This document shows, one piece after another, positions 13,465-29,299 of a stretch of 44,565 nt of DNA; within the stretch, counting starts at the first letter, position 1; each line of letters begins with the position of its first letter. The position numbers and the translations under genes were made by a program. Below the pieces are notes generated by a model. The model had not been told where the DNA came from and made no database searches. It worked only from the letters and a program-made list of their open reading frames with translations. The stretch lies in the NCBI GenBank assembly GCA_026418475.1, contig JAOABG010000004.1, positions 2,806 to 47,370 of the forward strand, read 5' to 3'. This DNA is from a bacterium. Lineage in GTDB: Bacteria; DRYD01.

Positions 13465-13541
13465 TGGTGGGCCTCTCTGGACTCGAACCAGAGACCTTAC
13501 CCTTATCAGGGGTACGCTCTAACCACCTGAGCTAGAGGCCC
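13465..13541 (-). tRNA. tRNA-Ile (anticodon GAT)
   Basis: Minus strand reads GGGCCTC-TAGCTCAGGTGGTTAGAGC-G-TACCC-CTGATAA-GGGTA-AGGTC-TCTGG-TTCGAGT-CCAGA-GAGGCCC-ACCA: full cloverleaf, 77 nt, encoded CCA. Confidence 0.98.
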
Positions 13542-22914: not shown

Positions 22915-23409
22915 TTATGTCCCTCCCTTTTCTATTATTTTCCGAATAATTTTTGTCGTAGATGAATCAGGAACAAAAGGCAAAACTCTATAGACAATTT
23001 TGTACTTCTCTATGATTTTGAGTTCTGGAATTGCTTTATTATCATAGTCTCCACCTTTGAAATATACATCGGGTTTTAAATATTCAATTAATGATATTGG
23101 AGTGTCTTCTTCAAATGGAATTACAAAGTCAACCACTTCTATTGATGCTATAACTATCATCCTATCTTCAAGTGTGTTTATTGGTTTTTTAGGCCCCTTA
23201 ATTCTCTTTATACTCTCATCGGTATTAATTGCAACTACCAATATGTCACAGTATTCTTTGCTTTGATATAAATAAGTTATGTGTCCCTTATGGATTATAT
23301 CGAAACAACCATTTGTAAAGCCTATAATTTTACCAACTTCCTTGTATTTTTCAATTATTAGCTTAAGTCTTTGCCAACTATGTATTATCTTTTTTTCAAA
23401 GTGTCTCAT
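22915..23409 (-). CDS. rfaE2: D-glycero-beta-D-manno-heptose 1-phosphate adenylyltransferase (HldE domain II)
   Basis: FTNGCFDIIHKGH, NTDESIKRIKG, KGGDY and SSTT motifs. Confidence 0.93.
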   Translation of the reverse strand: MRHFEKKIIHSWQRLKLIIEKYKEVGKIIGFTNGCFDIIHKGHITYLYQSKEYCDILVVAINTDESIKRIKGPKKPINTLEDRMIVIASIEVVDFVIPFEEDTPISLIEYLKPDVYFKGGDYDNKAIPELKIIEKYKIVYRVLPFVPDSSTTKIIRKIIEKGGT

Positions 23410-24451
23410 ACTTTTGTGTTTCTCTGAGAATAAATTTGGGTAAATTTTGATTCACTTTCTGAATTTTCAGCAAATAGTTAATCAAATCTGTGGGTTTAAC
23501 TGCTATAGTACCAGGTTTTGAGACACAAATTGAACCTGCTATATTTGCTAACAAACCACTTTCTAAAGTTTCAAAACCTATTGAATTTAGTAGTCCAAAT
23601 ACGGATATAACATTATCACCAGCACCTGTAACATCAAAAACCTCTACCTCTATCCCGTCTATTTTTATAAAATTGCTCTTGTTTAGTATTGCTAGCCCAT
23701 CCTTACCAAGTGTAACCAATAATTTATTTATCCTATACTTTTTTATAAATTCAAACATGTTATGAAAAGTATCATTTTCTAGCCCTATATTTTTTGTTAT
23801 TTGTTGAAATTCTTGCTTATTTAAAGATAATAAATTTACATTTTGATTTTCCAAGAATTTTGAAAAACAGCTGAAATTTGGAGGCTTAATTGAAACACAG
23901 AAATGATTACTATTTAACGATTCCATAATTACATTAAGATTTTCATTTGTGAAAATTCCCTTGTTATAATCAATTATAAAAACTGAATCAAATTTTTGGG
24001 GTATTGATGAAACCTTATCTTTGATTATTTTTGATGGTATTTTTAGATTTTCTTTTTCTCTGTCTACTCTTGCAATTTGTTGATTATTACTTGCTATTAA
24101 CCTGGTTTTTACTATTGTTTTATCATATGTTAACGTTAAATCATTAATTCTATATCTTTTTAATAGTCTTTTTATCCTTGTGGAAAAGTGATCTTTACCA
24201 ATGATTCCTAAAAGACTGACATTTTGGGAATAATATGATAATATTTTGGCAACATTTGCTGCTCCTCCTAAATCGTTCCATTCTTTTTCAACCCTTAAAA
24301 CTGGAACAGGAGCTTCTGGTGATATCCTCTCAACTACTCCTTTTAACCACCTATCTAATATTATGTCACCTATGACCAGAATTTTGGATTTTTTTAATTC
24401 ATCTATGGTATTATTCAATTTATCTAATATTTCATTTATTTTGAGTTTCAT
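23396..24451 (-). CDS. rfaE1: D-glycero-beta-D-manno-heptose-7-phosphate kinase (HldE domain I, PfkB family)
   Basis: GDIILD, RISPEAPVPV, GGAANVA, DYNKG and DVTGAGD motifs. ATG 24451 preferred over the track start 24481. Confidence 0.92.
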   Translation of the reverse strand: MKLKINEILDKLNNTIDELKKSKILVIGDIILDRWLKGVVERISPEAPVPVLRVEKEWNDLGGAANVAKILSYYSQNVSLLGIIGKDHFSTRIKRLLKRYRINDLTLTYDKTIVKTRLIASNNQQIARVDREKENLKIPSKIIKDKVSSIPQKFDSVFIIDYNKGIFTNENLNVIMESLNSNHFCVSIKPPNFSCFSKFLENQNVNLLSLNKQEFQQITKNIGLENDTFHNMFEFIKKYRINKLLVTLGKDGLAILNKSNFIKIDGIEVEVFDVTGAGDNVISVFGLLNSIGFETLESGLLANIAGSICVSKPGTIAVKPTDLINYLLKIQKVNQNLPKFILRETQKYETL

Positions 24452-25514
24452 ATTTTTTATGTATTCTTGCAGGATTACCAATGACTATTGTATTTTCATG
24501 AACATCTTTGGTCACAACACTCCCAGCTCCTATATAAGAATTTGGACCAATTTTCTTAGGAGATATTATCACTGCATTAGACCCTATAAACGAATTTTTC
24601 TTGATTATACTTGTGTATTTATTTTTGCCATCGTAATTTGCAAAAACAACACCAGCACCAATGTTAACATTCTCTTCTATTATTAAATCTCCCAAATAAG
24701 CTAAATGTGAAGCTTTCAAATCTCCATCAACTTTTATGTTTTTACATTCAACAAATGCACCTATCTTAGAACTGTGTATTATATTATTTTCTCTGAGATG
24801 AGTAAATGGACCTACAAAATTGTTATTTATTAATTCATTTTTTGTAATAATACTGTGGGAAATGATGTTGTTAAATCCTATTTGTGAGTCGGTAATGAAA
24901 CAATTCGGACCAATTTTATTGGATTTACCTATCTCTGAGTTTATTATAAAAGTGTTATCTAAAATTGTATTGTTTTCATCCAATTTTGATAATGGGCAGA
25001 TAAAAATATTTTTTCCTAAGATAACATTATTAACTCTTTCTGTAGAATACTTTTTTATCAAATTGAAAAGTTTCTCAAAATCTTTGATTTTCCTTATTTT
25101 AAAGATGTATTCTATGGATTTTCCCAAAATATTTATGAATTTATGATCAGTTGCATTTACATTTATGGTTTTGTATTCTCTACTTTTTATTACTTTATCT
25201 TTTATTTTTTCTTTCTTATAATATAGTAAAGGAGAATTGAGATCTATTAAAACTACTTTTTCATTTTTGTTAAGTTTTGATATATCCTTTGACAGATCTA
25301 AGCTTTCTATTAAATCTATCTCCAGATTTATATTGTATAGCTTGATCAATTTTTTTATTAATTCCTGGGATTCATGGTTAATTATAAAAAGAGGTTTTTT
25401 TTGAAAATATTCATACAAATTTTCTATAAGTTTCAAAGTGGGTAGGCAAACTGGATAGTAAAAATATTGATCATCATATTTCCATTTTTCTTCCTTTGCA
25501 AATACTAATATCAT
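24432..25514 (-). CDS. glmU: GlmU-like protein: intact C-terminal LbH glucosamine-1-P acetyltransferase, degenerate N-terminal domain
   Basis: VGPFTHLR, GAFVECK, SHLAYLGD, NIGAG, NYDGKNK, FIGSN and GAGSVVTKDV present; no LAAGxGTRM motif. Confidence 0.75.
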   Translation of the reverse strand: MILVFAKEEKWKYDDQYFYYPVCLPTLKLIENLYEYFQKKPLFIINHESQELIKKLIKLYNINLEIDLIESLDLSKDISKLNKNEKVVLIDLNSPLLYYKKEKIKDKVIKSREYKTINVNATDHKFINILGKSIEYIFKIRKIKDFEKLFNLIKKYSTERVNNVILGKNIFICPLSKLDENNTILDNTFIINSEIGKSNKIGPNCFITDSQIGFNNIISHSIITKNELINNNFVGPFTHLRENNIIHSSKIGAFVECKNIKVDGDLKASHLAYLGDLIIEENVNIGAGVVFANYDGKNKYTSIIKKNSFIGSNAVIISPKKIGPNSYIGAGSVVTKDVHENTIVIGNPARIHKKYETQNK

Positions 25515-27988
25515 AAGTTAGCGGTTTTTTTTATTGGTTCAAACCTCATTGTGAAGAATCTTAAAAATGGTGGTTCATATAAAATTGATAACCCACTTAT
25601 TTTTTCTCTTATACTGAATACTTCACATATTGTGTTACTTGTGTACTCCATATGTTCATTTGTATAAACTCTTCTTGGTATGGTTATTCTAACTAATTCA
25701 AGCTCTGGATATTTGTGTTTACCTGTTTTGGGATCTCTTCCTGCAGATACTATCCCTCTTTCCATGGTTCTAACACCACCATACAAATAGATGTACGCAG
25801 CTAATGTCTGAGCAGGGAACTCTTCCTGACTTATGTGCGGCAAAAACCTTTTGGCATCAATATATATTGCATGTCCTCCTATTGGTTCTACTATTGGTAT
25901 ATTTGATGATTTTAACAGATTTCCTAAGTACCTTACCTGATCTATCCTATTTTTTAGATAATAGAAGTTGGTCATCTCAGTTATTCCTTTTGCTAACATT
26001 GCTATATCTCTGGATGACATTCCTCCGTTATAGTATTCACCCTCAAAAATCTCTATCATCTTCTTCATTTTTATGAACAAATCTGGTGATCTAACAAGTA
26101 TTAATCCACTTATATTGGTCAGTGGATCTTTTTTAGCTGAAATTGTGGCAGCATCAGCTAAACTCATTATCTCTCTTATGATACTCTTTATGTCTTTGTT
26201 TTGATATCCCTGTTCTCTTTCTTTGATGAAGAAAGCATTTTCTGCTATCCTTGTTGCATCTAATACTATAGGAATGCCATAATAATCACATATCTTTCTT
26301 ATTTGTTTTATATTTTCTAATGAGACTGGTTGTCCTCCAGCCATGTTAACATTATTTTCGATACATACGTAAGCTATATTACTTGCTCCGTTTTTCTCTA
26401 TAAAATCTACCAATTTATCCACATCTATATTACCCTTAAATGGGTGTGGAACTTCAGGTTTATAAGCTTCCTCTATGATTAAATCAACAAAAACTCCTTG
26501 GGCATATTCTTGATGAAACCTTGTTGTTGTAAAATACATGTTATTTATTACAAACTGCCCAGGTTTTATCATTGTTTGAGAAAGAACATGTTCTGCAGCT
26601 CTACCTTGATGGGTGGGTAAAAAGTACCTGAAACCAAATATATTTTCTATTGATTCTTCTAAAAGCTTATATGCTCTTTTTTGATCATACAATATTGCTA
26701 AACTCCATTGTTCGTCACTCATACTACTTGTTCCACTATCAGTTAAAAGATCTATATACACTTTTTCTGCTGGTATTAAAAAAGTGTTATATCCAGCTTT
26801 TTCTAATATTTCTTTCCTATCCTCAAAAGAGAGTAAGTTGATTATTTCTATACCCTTTAAATTATAAGAAATATAATCTCTTGGATCAATAAAATCGGAT
26901 ATGTATCTTCTGTTTTTTTGTTGTATTGCCAATTCCAAAGAGTTGACAAATAGTTCTAAGTTTTTCTTTTGATATTTCCTTGAAGGTAAATATAGAACCA
27001 TATAATTATCTTTGCTATAACCTCTTACTTGTCCTATTAAGAATAATAAATTGTTTATGTTATGAATACTATGTTTTATGTAGAAGTAATGTGCTGAGCA
27101 GCGGGGACTGATTTCAAAACCTTCAACGGAATTCGTAATTCTTTTTATTTCTTCGTATAAAAAATTAATTGATTTTTCTTTATATTCCCAAAAATTTTTG
27201 TTTTTTGCCTCTTCTAATCCTTGATTTATTATTTCCATATCTCTTCCAGCTAAACCACCGTAGGTATGTAGCCCTTCAAAGGCCACTACCCATTCTGTAA
27301 GATGCTCGTAATATTTGAAATTATCAGTTATTAACAATGCTCCTGTATTTGACATTAAGTCAAATGAACAGTCTATAACTATTATGTCAACTAGATTACT
27401 GAATTCTTTAACTTCATCTAAATTTGATTTTGTAAAAGAAAAAATATTAGAAAAATCTGCTATTGTCAGCAATGACTCTTCTTTCAATTCTGAAATCATA
27501 TTCTTTACATCATTAATACTATAATTATAACTTTTTAGGGAATTTAGGAAAAAGATTGATATTTTTTTACTGCCCTGTTGTTTGATTTTATAATAGCTGA
27601 GTATCTTTTCAAAGTGTTGATTTTCTAAAGGATTATAATTCACTAGATTAAATTGATAGTTTTCAAAATTTTCAAGTATTTTGATTATTAAGTTCCATGC
27701 TCCCTTTATATTGTGGGTGGGAATAAGGTATTCTTTGTTGAATGTCTTCTGAATATTTTGATTGAGCTTTATGAAATTTTTACTACCTGCATAGGATTCA
27801 TCTCCCAAGAATAATGCTGCATATTGGCTTTCACTTAAGCTATTTAGATTCATTCCTGATAAATCTGTCCATATATAATCTTCTTCTATTAAATTTGCAT
27901 CATTTTCTTTCTTTTCTAACAATATTCTTCTTTCTGAAATATCCAAGTACTTAGGAAAATAAACTATTTTAGCTTTATACGGTTGCAT
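25511..27988 (-). CDS. tpl: Tandem-duplicated tyrosine phenol-lyase (beta-eliminating lyase), 825 aa
   Basis: C-terminal half has GYNTFL, DLLTDSGT, THQGRAAE, NMYFTTTR, DATR, SAKKD, MERGIVSAGR and LRFFT (TPL-type, not the tryptophanase LRHFT). N-terminal half is a second, degenerate copy. Confidence 0.9.
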   Translation of the reverse strand: MQPYKAKIVYFPKYLDISERRILLEKKENDANLIEEDYIWTDLSGMNLNSLSESQYAALFLGDESYAGSKNFIKLNQNIQKTFNKEYLIPTHNIKGAWNLIIKILENFENYQFNLVNYNPLENQHFEKILSYYKIKQQGSKKISIFFLNSLKSYNYSINDVKNMISELKEESLLTIADFSNIFSFTKSNLDEVKEFSNLVDIIVIDCSFDLMSNTGALLITDNFKYYEHLTEWVVAFEGLHTYGGLAGRDMEIINQGLEEAKNKNFWEYKEKSINFLYEEIKRITNSVEGFEISPRCSAHYFYIKHSIHNINNLLFLIGQVRGYSKDNYMVLYLPSRKYQKKNLELFVNSLELAIQQKNRRYISDFIDPRDYISYNLKGIEIINLLSFEDRKEILEKAGYNTFLIPAEKVYIDLLTDSGTSSMSDEQWSLAILYDQKRAYKLLEESIENIFGFRYFLPTHQGRAAEHVLSQTMIKPGQFVINNMYFTTTRFHQEYAQGVFVDLIIEEAYKPEVPHPFKGNIDVDKLVDFIEKNGASNIAYVCIENNVNMAGGQPVSLENIKQIRKICDYYGIPIVLDATRIAENAFFIKEREQGYQNKDIKSIIREIMSLADAATISAKKDPLTNISGLILVRSPDLFIKMKKMIEIFEGEYYNGGMSSRDIAMLAKGITEMTNFYYLKNRIDQVRYLGNLLKSSNIPIVEPIGGHAIYIDAKRFLPHISQEEFPAQTLAAYIYLYGGVRTMERGIVSAGRDPKTGKHKYPELELVRITIPRRVYTNEHMEYTSNTICEVFSIREKISGLSILYEPPFLRFFTMRFEPIKKTANL

Positions 27989-28135
27989 TAGATTTTCTCC
28001 TTTCTCAAAATAATTACCCTATAGATAGTATTAATATACCTTTTTACTTTATCCTTTTTATGTAATTATATTATATAGATTTTATTATATAGATTTTAAG
28101 GGATTGGATATGTTTTTGTTGAACTATATAGCTAA

Positions 28136-28606: not shown

Positions 28607-29299
28607 CTATTCTTTGTTCTGTCTCGATTCGGATAACTTGGTTAAAGCTGCTGCAACCACACCACCTACTATTCCTCCTATTGCTGCTCCTGCCAATCCT
28701 CCGATCAAAATGTGTTCGAGATGACTAATTCCAGTTTCAAACTTTACATGGGTTTTTTGGTAAGTATCTATTATTTTGTAGTCTATTTTGGGAGAAAATC
28801 TTACCCAGTATCCGTTTACTTCTTGGTAGCATTTTTGAATATCTCCATCTCTAATACAATACTCATCTACATCTTCCCATATTGTTTGACTGTATCCTTT
28901 AAATATGGGTTCTTTAACTTCTTGTGTTGTATAGTTTACAATTGGTTTACCATGTCCTTGGAAAGTTTGAGTATATTCTTTATAGATGACTTTTCCATAT
29001 TCATCTTTTACAGGGATTTTTTCATAAACACTTTCTGTGGGGGTGTTATTCACTGATTCCCATGGCCAAGTGGGAACATACTGATTTTTGGGAATTTTAC
29101 CTATTTCATGTGTTTCGTAAATAGGTTCTTTAACTTTAACTTCTACTGTTTCAACTGGTAATGATTTTACTTTTTTATTGGCTTGTATCCCTCCAAGTAT
29201 TGAACCAACAACTGCTCCACCTGCTGCTCCTATACCTACACCTTTAACAATGTTTTCCCCTGATTTTGTTGAGGAATACAAATTATTGTTCAGTTTCAT
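28607..29299 (-). CDS. Hypothetical protein with N- and C-terminal glycine-zipper hydrophobic segments
   Basis: GVGIGAAGGAVVGSILGG and GGLAGAAIGGIVGGVVAAA flank a beta-rich region; GGAGGTGA RBS. Confidence 0.85.
   Translation of the reverse strand: MKLNNNLYSSTKSGENIVKGVGIGAAGGAVVGSILGGIQANKKVKSLPVETVEVKVKEPIYETHEIGKIPKNQYVPTWPWESVNNTPTESVYEKIPVKDEYGKVIYKEYTQTFQGHGKPIVNYTTQEVKEPIFKGYSQTIWEDVDEYCIRDGDIQKCYQEVNGYWVRFSPKIDYKIIDTYQKTHVKFETGISHLEHILIGGLAGAAIGGIVGGVVAAALTKLSESRQNKE

Follow-up and report, generated by a model that had tools for sequence, protein, structure and literature searches.

TPL (tyrosine phenol-lyase; EC 4.1.99.2) and tryptophanase (tryptophan indole-lyase; TnaA) share a family and a fold, and in ordinary members of both groups the partner subunit contributes two loops that complete each PLP site. 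Excerpted literature describes known TPLs as homotetramers of ~456-aa subunits with four equivalent sites, with Tyr71 as general acid and Arg381 and Thr124 as catalytic residues (PMC10170061); the roles of the substrate and specificity residues are covered there and in PMC9262865. In excerpts on the related enzymes, the equivalent Tyr74 and Tyr307 of Escherichia coli tryptophanase act across the catalytic dimer (PMC2770544), and the equivalent Tyr-72* of Proteus vulgaris tryptophan indole-lyase, contributed by the other chain, is the proton donor (PMC11301627). The same trans-acting tyrosines occur in the N half of the fusion protein described here.

The window (the whole 44,565-nucleotide stretch of DNA analysed) contains a gene for an 825-aa chain with two non-equivalent halves, a departure from the TPL homotetramer of ~456-aa subunits that each carry an active site. 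An earlier note on this DNA read the frame as two TPL copies, and profile scores and alignment of both halves bear this out. The whole protein scores above the cut-offs of PF01212 (Beta_elim_lyase; 260.7 bits, cut-off 27) and NF009709 (tryptophanase/TPL subfamily; 663.5 bits, cut-off 285), and below that of the TPL equivalog model TIGR02618 (701.3 bits, cut-off 720.7). Coordinate arithmetic on the translation recovered every motif position named earlier. The features are as follows, with TPL numbering taken from the phmmer alignment to PDB chain 1c7g:

25511..27988, minus strand: whole reading frame (P0001), 825 aa plus stop with an ATG start; tandem TPL-TPL fusion
26921..27988, minus strand: N half (residues 1-356), a degenerate TPL copy without a cofactor site and the proposed donor of trans-acting loops
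27782..27805, minus strand: GDESYAGS (residues 62-69); Glu64 equals TPL Glu69 and Tyr66 equals the general acid Tyr71
27704..27715, minus strand: HNIK (residues 92-95), the N-half remnant of the phosphate-binding HQGR loop
27359..27373, minus strand: DCSFD (residues 206-210), a remnant of S-x-K-K-D with Phe209 at the PLP-lysine column (hmmalign against 52 single-domain TPLs)
27233..27280, minus strand: FEGLHTYGGLAGRDME (residues 237-252); Leu240 equals TPL Met288 and Tyr243 equals TPL Tyr291
26864..26920, minus strand: linker (residues 357-375), with no helix or strand in the AF2 model between helix 341-356 and strand 376-382
25514..26863, minus strand: C half (residues 376-825), a full TPL-type PLP domain
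26729..26743, minus strand: TDSGT (residues 416-420); Gly419 equals TPL Gly52; invariant in 64 aligned fusions
26669..26692, minus strand: LYDQKRAY (residues 433-440), what is left of GDEAYAGSEN after degeneration and loss of 4 aa
26600..26611, minus strand: HQGR (residues 460-463), the phosphate-binding loop; Arg463 equals TPL Arg100; invariant in 64 aligned fusions
26126..26140, minus strand: SAKKD (residues 617-621); Lys620 equals the PLP lysine Lys257
26006..26044, minus strand: EGEYYNGGMSSRD (residues 649-661), a drifted loop that includes YYNGGMSSRD (residues 652-661); Glu651 stands at TPL Met288 and Asn654 at TPL Tyr291
25754..25765, minus strand: MERG (residues 742-745); Met742 equals TPL Met379 and Arg744 equals TPL Arg381; invariant in 64 aligned fusions
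Residues 764-767, minus strand: ELVR, in the C half
25553..25564, minus strand: LRFF (LRFFT, residues 809-813); Phe811 and Phe812 equal TPL Phe448 and Phe449; invariant in 64 aligned fusions

The C half closely resembles an ordinary TPL. Residues 373-825 alone (nt 25514-26872) score 600.1 bits against TIGR02618, covering model positions 4-450 of 450 (cut-off 720.7), and the TPL chains of Citrobacter freundii and Erwinia herbicola (PDB 2ez1, 2tpl, 1c7g, 9j3u) match it at E about 1e-150 (phmmer), with 48-49% identity over 443 columns and target-normalised TM-scores of 0.93-0.95 (0.94 at rmsd 1.2-1.7 for C. freundii TPL in Foldseek). The corresponding values for tryptophanases (PDB 1ax4, 2c44) are 35-42% and 0.85-0.93. 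As in TPL, all cofactor, carboxylate and phenol-binding residues are kept: the cofactor set is complete (K620, K619, S617, D577 and Q461-G462-R463, equal to Lys257, Lys256, Ser254, Asp214 and Gln98-Gly99-Arg100), as is the substrate and specificity set (T487, R744, R767, F811, F812 and M742, equal to Thr124, Arg381, Arg404, Phe448, Phe449 and Met379), and Asn262 is present as N625. Unlike TPL, the C half has no Glu69/Tyr71 motif of its own, and Met288/Tyr291 are missing too. Alignment of LYDQKRAY is ambiguous, with phmmer against PDB chains placing Arg438 at Tyr71 and deleting GSEN and hmmalign placing Tyr434 there and deleting GDEA; Glu69 and GDE.YAGS are gone under either alignment, and a Tyr at the Tyr71 column is not retained in the C halves of deeper family members (hmmalign).

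The N half alone matches the TPL and TnaA models weakly (NF009709, 116.2 bits; TIGR02618, 107.9 bits). It is without the PLP lysine Lys257, Lys256, Ser254 and QGR, with Asp214 possibly present in the alignment, and it retains E64, Y66 and Y243 at the Glu69, Tyr71 and Tyr291 positions; Glu64 is presumably a cation ligand. The reciprocal losses claimed from the first reading thus hold when each half is aligned to TPLs: the PLP lysine stands only in the C half and the Tyr71 and Tyr291 loops only in the N half.

Homologues of 800-950 aa with the same losses, which the earlier note had proposed to look for, form a family-wide pattern. Fusions of 797-944 aa account for 67 of the best 120 homologues, and the fusion is present in 9/9 same-family genomes and, across many phyla, at 26 of 80 species-genome loci (a set overlapping the 67 fusions), all 26 of which carry the reciprocal pattern. 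The same design recurs across many uncultured bacteria and, as far as could be found, has not been described in the literature. The N half, here with Phe209 at the PLP-lysine column, is retained in 67 clusters and 26 loci; a Lys does occupy the PLP-lysine column in the N halves of P0013, P0017, P0019 and P0020, but without Ser254, Lys256, Asp214 or QGR. Every one of the 67 C halves keeps Thr49, Ser51, Gly52, QGR, Phe123, Thr124, Asp214, Ser254, Lys256, Lys257, Asn262, Met379, Arg381, Arg404, Phe448 and Phe449, while Asn185 and Arg217 are kept in 65/67 and Tyr291 is absent from 65/67. Tyr71 and Tyr291 are kept in 63/67 N halves, as is EGLHTYGG; the four exceptions comprise P0012 and P0014 together with two rows that are truncated or, in one case, gapped in the alignment. 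Neither half turned up on its own among the homologues: each of the three short 'C-only' proteins is a gene call from an internal start (P0071, for example, is contained with 100% identity in an uninterrupted 831-aa ORF of L097), and short N-like matches are fragments or frameshifted pieces.

Conservation is distributed unevenly between the halves. Among 62 fusions, mean column conservation is 0.46 in the N half vs 0.70 in the C half, and N-half identity is the lower in 1891/1891 pairs (means 0.33 vs 0.62). Smoothed conservation of at least 0.8 is reached in the N half only at residues 63-69 (DESYAGS) and 237-251 (FEGLHTYGGLAGRDM); these peaks fall exactly on the two trans loops, for which the complex prediction gives C-half contacts. 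Selection on the N half is, to judge from this pattern, focused on those loops.

That the fusion is an artefact of assembly or annotation, or that the N half is the relic of a decaying pseudogene that happens to be read through, is extremely improbable, even though the source assembly is fragmented (189 contigs, 79% complete) and the N half degenerate. Identical contigs in X1 and X2 span the junction, as does a 1797-nt contig ~92% alike in X4, so that two studies are represented, and a compensating pair of 1-nt indels in related strains preserves the frame. Both halves share one open frame in 8/9 other family genomes, the ninth being split over contig ends. Together with the 67 fused protein clusters and the 26 species loci, these observations contradict an assembly artefact, and strong conservation of the two N-half loops argues against a decaying remnant.

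The gene probably encodes a single-chain, pseudo-heterodimeric TPL with one composite active site per chain, for which activity is predicted. An ancestral TPL gene would have been duplicated in tandem and then fused, yielding one polypeptide that may fold as the usual 'catalytic dimer' of two identical subunits, with the roles of pocket and partner loops split between its halves. The C half would supply the PLP and substrate pocket (Lys620, Asp577, Gln461-Gly462-Arg463, Thr487, Arg744, Arg767, Phe811, Phe812), completed, as in TPL, by the Tyr71-type and Tyr291-type loops of a paired TPL-like unit, here the N half, which would supply the general acid Tyr66, Glu64 and the Tyr243 loop in trans. 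The mirror site, composed of the N-half pocket and C-half loops, would be dead through loss of the lysine, the phosphate loop and both tyrosines. Work cited in an excerpted source found that Tyr71 and Arg381 replacements in TPL affect substrates differently (PMC3870968). A site without the tyrosine could keep some activity where the leaving group is good. By its sequence the protein allows only one complete site per chain; we predict one PLP and one active site per 825 aa, with catalysis in trans. The reaction is likely conversion of L-tyrosine to phenol, pyruvate and ammonia, and two such chains probably associate into a counterpart of the TPL tetramer.

Structure models are consistent with this arrangement. 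The AF2 single-chain model is confident (mean pLDDT 93.2, pTM 0.91), including in the N half, and packs the halves intramolecularly. Complex prediction of the N half with the C half and PLP gives an ipSAE of 0.90 vs 0.02 for the best control, a mark reached by 58/80 solved complexes and 2/110 mismatched pairs, counts that hold only roughly here, given the custom alignment and the included ligand. At least 90% of contacts are shared between runs and partner pLDDT is at least 91, though the prediction may reflect memory of solved TPL dimers. The interface is predicted between N-half residues 63-70, 235-241 and 245-250 and C-half residues 402-421, 460-464 and 806-813, with Glu64 in contact with Gly419, Thr420 and Asn625; Tyr243 itself is absent from the confident contacts. 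N-half residues 92-96 touch C-half 647-650, mirroring the live-site contact. The models place the Glu64 and Tyr66 loop against the C-half site, again with solved TPL dimers possibly remembered. The architecture, the reciprocal losses, their conservation and a confident model are established, and the duplication, fusion and single composite site put forward in the earlier note gain further weight from the loop conservation peaks, congruent tree groupings, modelled contacts, bridged junction and literature on trans tyrosines, with catalysis as the predicted step. Its suggestions for the dead pocket fared less well: an allosteric role finds no support, the pocket being the least conserved part of the protein, and a role in thermostability fits poorly because most fused homologues are named for lineages not labelled hot-spring, e.g. 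Gemmatimonadota, Bacteroidales, Planctomycetota and Acidobacteriota.

The same architecture might serve a different chemistry, its single site acting on a cysteine or serine derivative, tryptophan or a modified tyrosine. We regard this as unlikely. It would account for the missed TIGR02618 cut-off, the replacement of partner-derived Met288 by Leu in a loop reading LHTYGG and a neighbourhood without any tyrosine-related gene (the adjoining genes encode a hexapeptide transferase, a PfkB kinase, a cytidylyltransferase and LspA). The genome also carries a second, tryptophanase-type paralogue, and the two proteins may therefore have divided functions. Yet the C half retains every one of Thr124, Arg381, Phe448, Phe449, Met379 and Phe36, EGLHTYGG also occurs in ordinary single-domain TPL-like proteins, some of them named tyrosine phenol-lyase at source, and the best PDB matches are all TPLs, ahead of tryptophanases in identity. 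The second paralogue has Asp, Ile/Val and His, residues of tryptophanase type, where the C half has TPL-type Thr124, Arg381 and Phe448. Asp-133 and His-458 of tryptophan indole-lyase, as given in an excerpt, partly support this assignment (PMC11301627).

Two further readings, each improbable, differ from the composite-site enzyme in what the N half does or which chain it serves. The N half could act purely as a structural scaffold or a chaperone-like partner in place of homodimerisation, with its loops serving packing rather than chemistry; as these sit in the predicted interface, selection for packing could by itself explain their conservation, and the excerpted tryptophanase study attributes a stabilising effect on the E. 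coli catalytic dimer to hydrogen bonds from Tyr74 and Tyr307 to the PLP phosphate (PMC2770544). The near-invariant residues nevertheless include exactly the general-acid Tyr and Glu69, whereas the rest of the predicted interface (N-half residues 92-99 and 128-132) varies freely, and the available text reports negligible activity for Y74F tryptophanase (PMC2770544) and proton donation by Tyr-72* (PMC11301627). In a domain-swapped dimer, by contrast, the N half of one chain would pair with the C half of another, still with one live site per chain. The ~19-residue linker (357-375) could permit either topology and the complex prediction does not separate them, since the halves were entered as separate chains, whereas the AF2 model (pTM 0.91) favours intramolecular packing.

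In the tree, the 25 N halves of the main type group together (SH-aLRT 95), as do the 25 C halves with three truncated gene calls (SH-aLRT 95), with matching internal groupings that indicate a congruent history; a single origin is not proven, because N-half branches are long and possible false joins were flagged. Variants of the fusion also exist. The P0255 type (909 aa) has lost only the C-half loops and looks like an intermediate. The P0012/P0014 type has an N half with Y71F and Y291C that keeps the lysine and a C half with both tyrosines and N185T and R217H, and so, on these residues, shows the opposite polarity to the main type with its C-half pocket and N-half loops. One of P0012 and P0014 is named as a cyanobacterium. 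It is conceivable, though doubtful, that fused, polarised TPLs are an old, phylum-spanning class in which a homo-oligomer became an obligate asymmetric chain, perhaps repeatedly and in both directions. If true, the family would be a natural series, a stepwise record of half-of-the-sites asymmetry becoming hard-wired, and the vacated pocket of the N half might have taken on a role in ligand sensing.

The glycine decarboxylase P-protein (GLDC/GcvP) is a ~950-1000-aa chain of two homologous fold-type-I halves that pair as a pseudo-dimer, PLP being confined to the C-terminal half. The active-site lysine of the human enzyme, Lys754 in the excerpted report, is consistent with this placement (PMC4767401). 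Among known systems GLDC/GcvP is the closest precedent for a single-chain pseudo-heterodimer; it differs in family and reaction and in having an ancient duplication that is universal, and its split (alpha/beta) and fused forms are both well known, whereas only fused forms of the two-halved TPL were found. Serine palmitoyltransferase is likewise of fold type I, with a single active site and an LCB1 subunit that lacks the PLP lysine, and differs in being made of separate polypeptides, eukaryotic, membrane-bound and dedicated to a Claisen-type condensation. Its LCB1/LCB2 pair is described in an excerpt as a PLP-dependent heterodimer of two homologous subunits (PMC3794620). SerTA (Ser4/Ser5) of Serratia sp. 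ATCC 39006, a hetero-oligomeric fold-type-I aminotransferase, combines a complete PLP subunit with a shortened, lysine-less homologue that contributes residues needed for activity; according to the available text it is encoded by two separate genes and acts on a carrier-protein-loaded substrate, and is neither a fusion nor a lyase (PMC11726168). The TPL fusion contrasts with homomeric TPL in joining two copies with apparently split roles and at most one complete site per pair, and is not as unprecedented as the earlier note supposed, with lysine-less partners known from SerTA (PMC11726168) and serine palmitoyltransferase. By analogy with these other fold-type-I PLP enzymes, the two-halved TPL may be regarded as a variant of a known theme.

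The open reading frame at 25511..27988 (-) encodes a tandem fusion of two tyrosine phenol-lyase (TPL) copies, which we read as a probable single-chain pseudo-heterodimer: the C half would hold the PLP pocket and the N half would contribute loops to it in trans. The protein matches Pfam Beta_elim_lyase (260.7 bits) and the tryptophanase/TPL subfamily model NF009709 (663.5 bits vs a cut-off of 285), and falls just below the cut-off of TIGR02618, the exact-function equivalog model for TPL (701.3 vs 720.7). Taken alone, residues 373-825 behave like a full-length TPL, scoring 600.1 bits on TIGR02618 across model positions 4-450 of 450; residues 1-372 alone give weak matches to NF009709 and TIGR02618 (116 and 108 bits), split over two stretches. 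The closest solved structures are all TPLs (E ~1e-150, 48-49% identity), with residues 375-817 as the aligned region. The gene and the motifs kept by each half are as follows, with TPL residue numbers derived from the printed alignment to 1c7g.

25511..27988 (-): TPL-TPL fusion ORF, 825 aa (ORF call)
Residues 62-69: N half, GDESYAGS intact
Residues 237-252: N half, FEGLHTYGGLAGRDME intact
Residues 416-420: C half, TDSGT retained (Thr49, Ser51, Gly52)
Residues 461-463: C half, Gln98-Gly99-Arg100 retained
Residues 617-621: C half, SAKKD retained (Ser254, Lys256, Lys257)

The C half additionally retains Phe123, Thr124, Asn185, Asp214, Arg217, Asn262, Met379, Arg381, Arg404, Phe448 and Phe449. It lacks GDEAYAGSEN, reading LYDQKRAY with a 4-aa deletion, and its EGMPSYGG loop has become EGEYYNGG, with Glu at Met288 and Asn at Tyr291. 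The residue assigned to its Tyr71 column depends on the alignment (Tyr434 by hmmalign, Arg438 by phmmer), and Glu69 is gone in both. In the N half, DCSFD takes the place of S-x-K-K-D and puts Phe209 at the lysine column, HNIK takes the place of HQGR, and TDSGT is no longer recognisable. The motif coordinates of an earlier note on this DNA were all correct on re-checking, and the complementary motif losses that it claimed are borne out by the residue alignment, in this protein and throughout a family of 67 fusions.

These 67 fusions (797-944 aa) were found among the 120 best matches to the whole protein; they are long homologues with the same reciprocal losses, of the kind that the earlier note proposed to look for. 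Apart from the partial P0070, their alignments extend over 91-100% of the query, and among the organisms named as sources are Candidatus Calescibacterium (77% identity), Nitrospirae, 'bacterium HR21' and a Chroococcales cyanobacterium; the other 53 matches are 52 single-domain proteins (~453-486 aa) and one 510-aa partial protein. Both halves of the fusions were aligned to an HMM built from 52 single-domain TPLs. Every C half (67/67) retains the Lys-Lys pair, QGR, Asp214, Met379, Arg381, Arg404 and Phe448/449, and Tyr291 is absent from 65. Tyr occupies column 71 in 63 of the 67 N halves and EGLHTYGG is present in 63, the exceptions being truncated or gapped rows together with P0012 and P0014. 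A Lys stands at the PLP-lysine column of six N halves: P0012 and P0014 have the full S-x-K-K motif, and P0013, P0017, P0019 and P0020 have the Lys without Ser254, Lys256, Asp214 or QGR.

The same reciprocal pattern recurs in species-representative genomes, in which fusions account for 26 of the 80 best loci, a set that overlaps the 67; names on these loci include Nitrospiraceae, Anaerolineales, Gemmatimonadota, Acidobacteriota, Eisenbacteria, Planctomycetota, Bacteroidales and Myxococcales. All nine other genomes of the same taxonomic family carry the fusion, whole in eight and divided across contig ends in one (G002). Among 62 fusions of the main type (C-half pocket with N-half loops), smoothed conservation within the N half reaches 0.8 in two windows only, 63-69 and 237-251. 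In every pair compared (1891/1891), identity is lower over the N half than over the C half (means 0.33 vs 0.62), and the length of the N half has shrunk variably, to 364-470 aa across the fusions and 372 in the window lyase. Conservation peaks at two loops, combined with faster N-half divergence, are the signature expected if the N half has been retained for those loops and for packing.

The earlier note allowed that the fusion might be an assembly artefact, which is contradicted by contigs from two studies that cross the junction. One is an identical 608-nt contig (26760-27367) from a run holding 91% of the stretch's words; from the second study come two more, one of 182 nt that is identical (26786-26967) and one of 1797 nt that is about 92% alike (26277-28067). 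In related strains of the second study the N half has lost one nucleotide and gained another 7-8 nt away (27099-27107), compensating changes that preserve the frame and alter two or three codons. All four runs matching the stretch are labelled hot springs metagenome, in keeping with its source, an uncultured hot-spring bacterium; no RNA run was listed as containing it. Free-standing halves were also sought, because their existence would weaken the idea of complementation. An exhaustive phmmer search of 1.84 billion representatives with the N half returned 530 matches at E <=0.001, and the top full-length matches among them are 847-928 aa fusions; a word-indexed search returned nothing but ordinary TPLs and one partial fusion. 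No free-standing half was found in these searches.

Several records that resemble isolated halves or split forms were rejected. Three apparent C-only proteins of 453-467 aa, named WOR-3 or Hydrothermia, are gene-call artefacts: at the DNA level P0071 lies with 100% identity within an unbroken 831-aa ORF (L097:2524-5019), and in protein alignments the first residue of P0069 is a Met that lies internally in P0026, and residue 1 of P0066 aligns with an internal Leu of P0017, P0020 and P0021. The apparent N-only proteins P0250, P0251, P0256 and P0279 proved to be fragmentary or frameshifted sequences. Two-gene tandems at five loci were dismissed as split forms since each gene is intact: at L030, L034, L035 and L061 a gap of 3-4 nt separates a complete tryptophanase-type gene (Asp124, Ile381, His448) from the complete TPL gene that follows it, and L029:2069-3472 is an intact tryptophanase-type gene upstream of a fused one. 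The Bordetella parapertussis MAG label on L035 seems out of place for such gene content.

The significance of the two N-half loops follows from the TPL catalytic dimer. The monovalent-cation site of TPL is formed by Glu69, Gly52 and Asn262, and Met288 is likewise donated in trans. By the printed alignment, TPL Tyr71 and Tyr291 correspond to Tyr74 and Tyr307 of Escherichia coli tryptophanase, which are described as hydrogen-bonding the PLP phosphate from the neighbouring subunit of the catalytic dimer; the Y74F variant is described as having nearly no activity (PMC2770544). In accounts of TPL, the role of general acid falls to Tyr71, and the phenol is acted on by Arg381 and Thr124 (PMC10170061, PMC9262865). 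The Y71F variant of TPL is reported to stay active on substrates that have good leaving groups.

An AlphaFold2 model of the whole chain, made with a 64-row family alignment (mean pLDDT 93.2, pTM 0.91), predicts parallel secondary-structure patterns in the two halves, with residues 357-375 as an unstructured linker. Its C half matches Citrobacter freundii TPL in Foldseek with a target-normalised TM-score of 0.94 and an rmsd of 1.2-1.7 A. Predicted as two chains with PLP, the halves gave an ipSAE of 0.90 over three runs (0.91, 0.90, 0.90; best control 0.02), with at least 90% of contacts shared between runs and partner pLDDT of at least 91. The benchmark for the ipSAE mark (reached by 58/80 solved complexes and 2/110 mismatched pairs) is only a rough guide here, and since solved TPL dimers exist and the prediction may recall them, the pass indicates likeness to the catalytic dimer and not binding. 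As the earlier note had anticipated, the modelled N-half loop bearing Glu64 and Tyr66 (63-70) is placed against the C-half site: N-half residues 63-70 and 235-250 are predicted opposite C-half residues 402-421, 460-464, 625-626 and 806-813, and Glu64 is predicted to contact Gly419, Thr420 and Asn625. On the mirror side, C-half residues 431-441 and 646-661 are predicted opposite N-half residues 92-99 and 128-132, around the dead pocket. The modelled arrangement of the halves is a pseudo-two-fold, like that of the TPL catalytic dimer.

A tree of 70 rows groups the 25 sampled main-type N halves in one clade (SH-aLRT 95), and the 25 C halves with three truncated gene calls in another (SH-aLRT 95). 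The internal groupings of the two clades agree, which fits a single fusion followed by co-divergence; the long N-half branches make false joins possible, and the tree gives no firm root, fusion count or placement of P0012 and P0014. N-half decay is graded on the TPL HMM, from 530 bits in P0012 through 250-350 in Nitrospiraceae and Gemmatimonadota types to ~55+57 in the window's clade. P0012 (927 aa) and P0014 (944 aa), one of them named Chroococcales cyanobacterium, have the opposite polarity and a PLP lysine in both halves: their N halves carry GDESFAGS (Y71F) and EGMPTCGG (Y291C), and their C halves have both tyrosines with N185T and R217H. Two further kinds of fusion came from the N-half phmmer search and are described here from a motif search. 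P0255 (909 aa) has all four motifs in its N half (GDEAYAG, HQGR, SGKKD, EGMPSYGGM), lacks GDE.Y in its C half, where the loop reads EGMPGSGG, and could represent an early stage of the fused type. P0244, P0249 and P0257 (864-902 aa), with C halves that lack LRFF and reach only 436-470 bits against the TPL HMM, may be fusions of another lyase type.

Because the live pocket contains TPL-type residues, L-tyrosine beta-elimination appears the most likely reaction of the window lyase. The same genome encodes a second lyase outside the window (L002:1363-2709 (+), G000:C131), a canonical, self-sufficient 448-aa protein with DESYAGS, HQGR, STKKD and FEGFPSYGGL all present in a single chain. Asp, Val and His occupy its TPL positions 124, 381 and 448, a set that we take to be the tryptophanase pattern; its gene is flanked by a histidine-kinase-like ORF and an HD-domain ORF, and the lyase is conserved in related genomes. 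Downstream of the fused gene lies the following group.

22915-25514 (-): three overlapping ORFs downstream of the lyase (ORF calls)

The nearest, for a 360-aa hexapeptide-repeat/hexapeptide-transferase protein, has a 4-nt overlap between its start and the lyase stop; its position is conserved in the same genus (L007) and not in the sister genus (L011). The next two encode a PfkB-family kinase (361 aa) and a cytidylyltransferase-like protein (164 aa), which together resemble a split HldE/RfaE-type pair. Examination of these neighbouring genes gave no hint of function and no link to the lyase. A promoter-like site near the junction (26889..26861) was dismissed as chance-level, since the scan found 15 such sites against 19.2 expected; no terminator was found in the same scan. 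Elsewhere in the window, a 230-aa ORF at 28607-29299 (-) has no Pfam match and has glycine-rich hydrophobic stretches close to both ends, and the only RNA gene found is tRNA-Ile(GAT) at 13465-13541 (-). The window is AT-rich throughout (1-44565; GC 0.23-0.37 per kb), and the sign of its GC skew flips near 12-19 kb and 29-30 kb, coinciding with changes of gene strand.

A natural single chain with one live and one dead site would allow each subunit's share across the dimer interface to be tested, without the symmetry that complicates the reading of mutants in homodimers, and offers a scaffold for engineering 'cis' and 'trans' residues separately. In evolutionary terms the family cleanly illustrates how a gene can be duplicated, fused and then degenerate reciprocally, and graded intermediates are available in public data. 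It raises an annotation issue, in that the fusions currently bear the plain names 'tryptophanase' or 'tyrosine phenol-lyase', and gene callers have cut some to the C half; such public records begin at an internal Met or alternative start and are named tryptophanase.

Among PLP lyases, TPL and tryptophanase are textbook examples, and every characterised member known to us is a homotetramer. TPL serves as an industrial catalyst for L-DOPA (PMC10170061). In the full texts searched, no TPL or tryptophanase is described as tandem, fused or asymmetric. In the glycine decarboxylase P-protein, a single chain forms a pseudo-dimer and carries PLP in its C-terminal half, and the active-site residue Lys754 given for the human enzyme fits this placement (PMC4767401). 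Known fold-type-I PLP enzymes that are asymmetric, one partner lacking the lysine, include SerTA (PMC11726168) and serine palmitoyltransferase, a heterodimer of homologous subunits (PMC3794620). The earlier note's statement that it knew of no characterised enzyme with this architecture therefore stands for fused TPLs and tryptophanases in the literature searched, but not for the principle, which SerTA and serine palmitoyltransferase precede; its occurrence in the well-studied, industrially used TPL family is, to our knowledge, without precedent.
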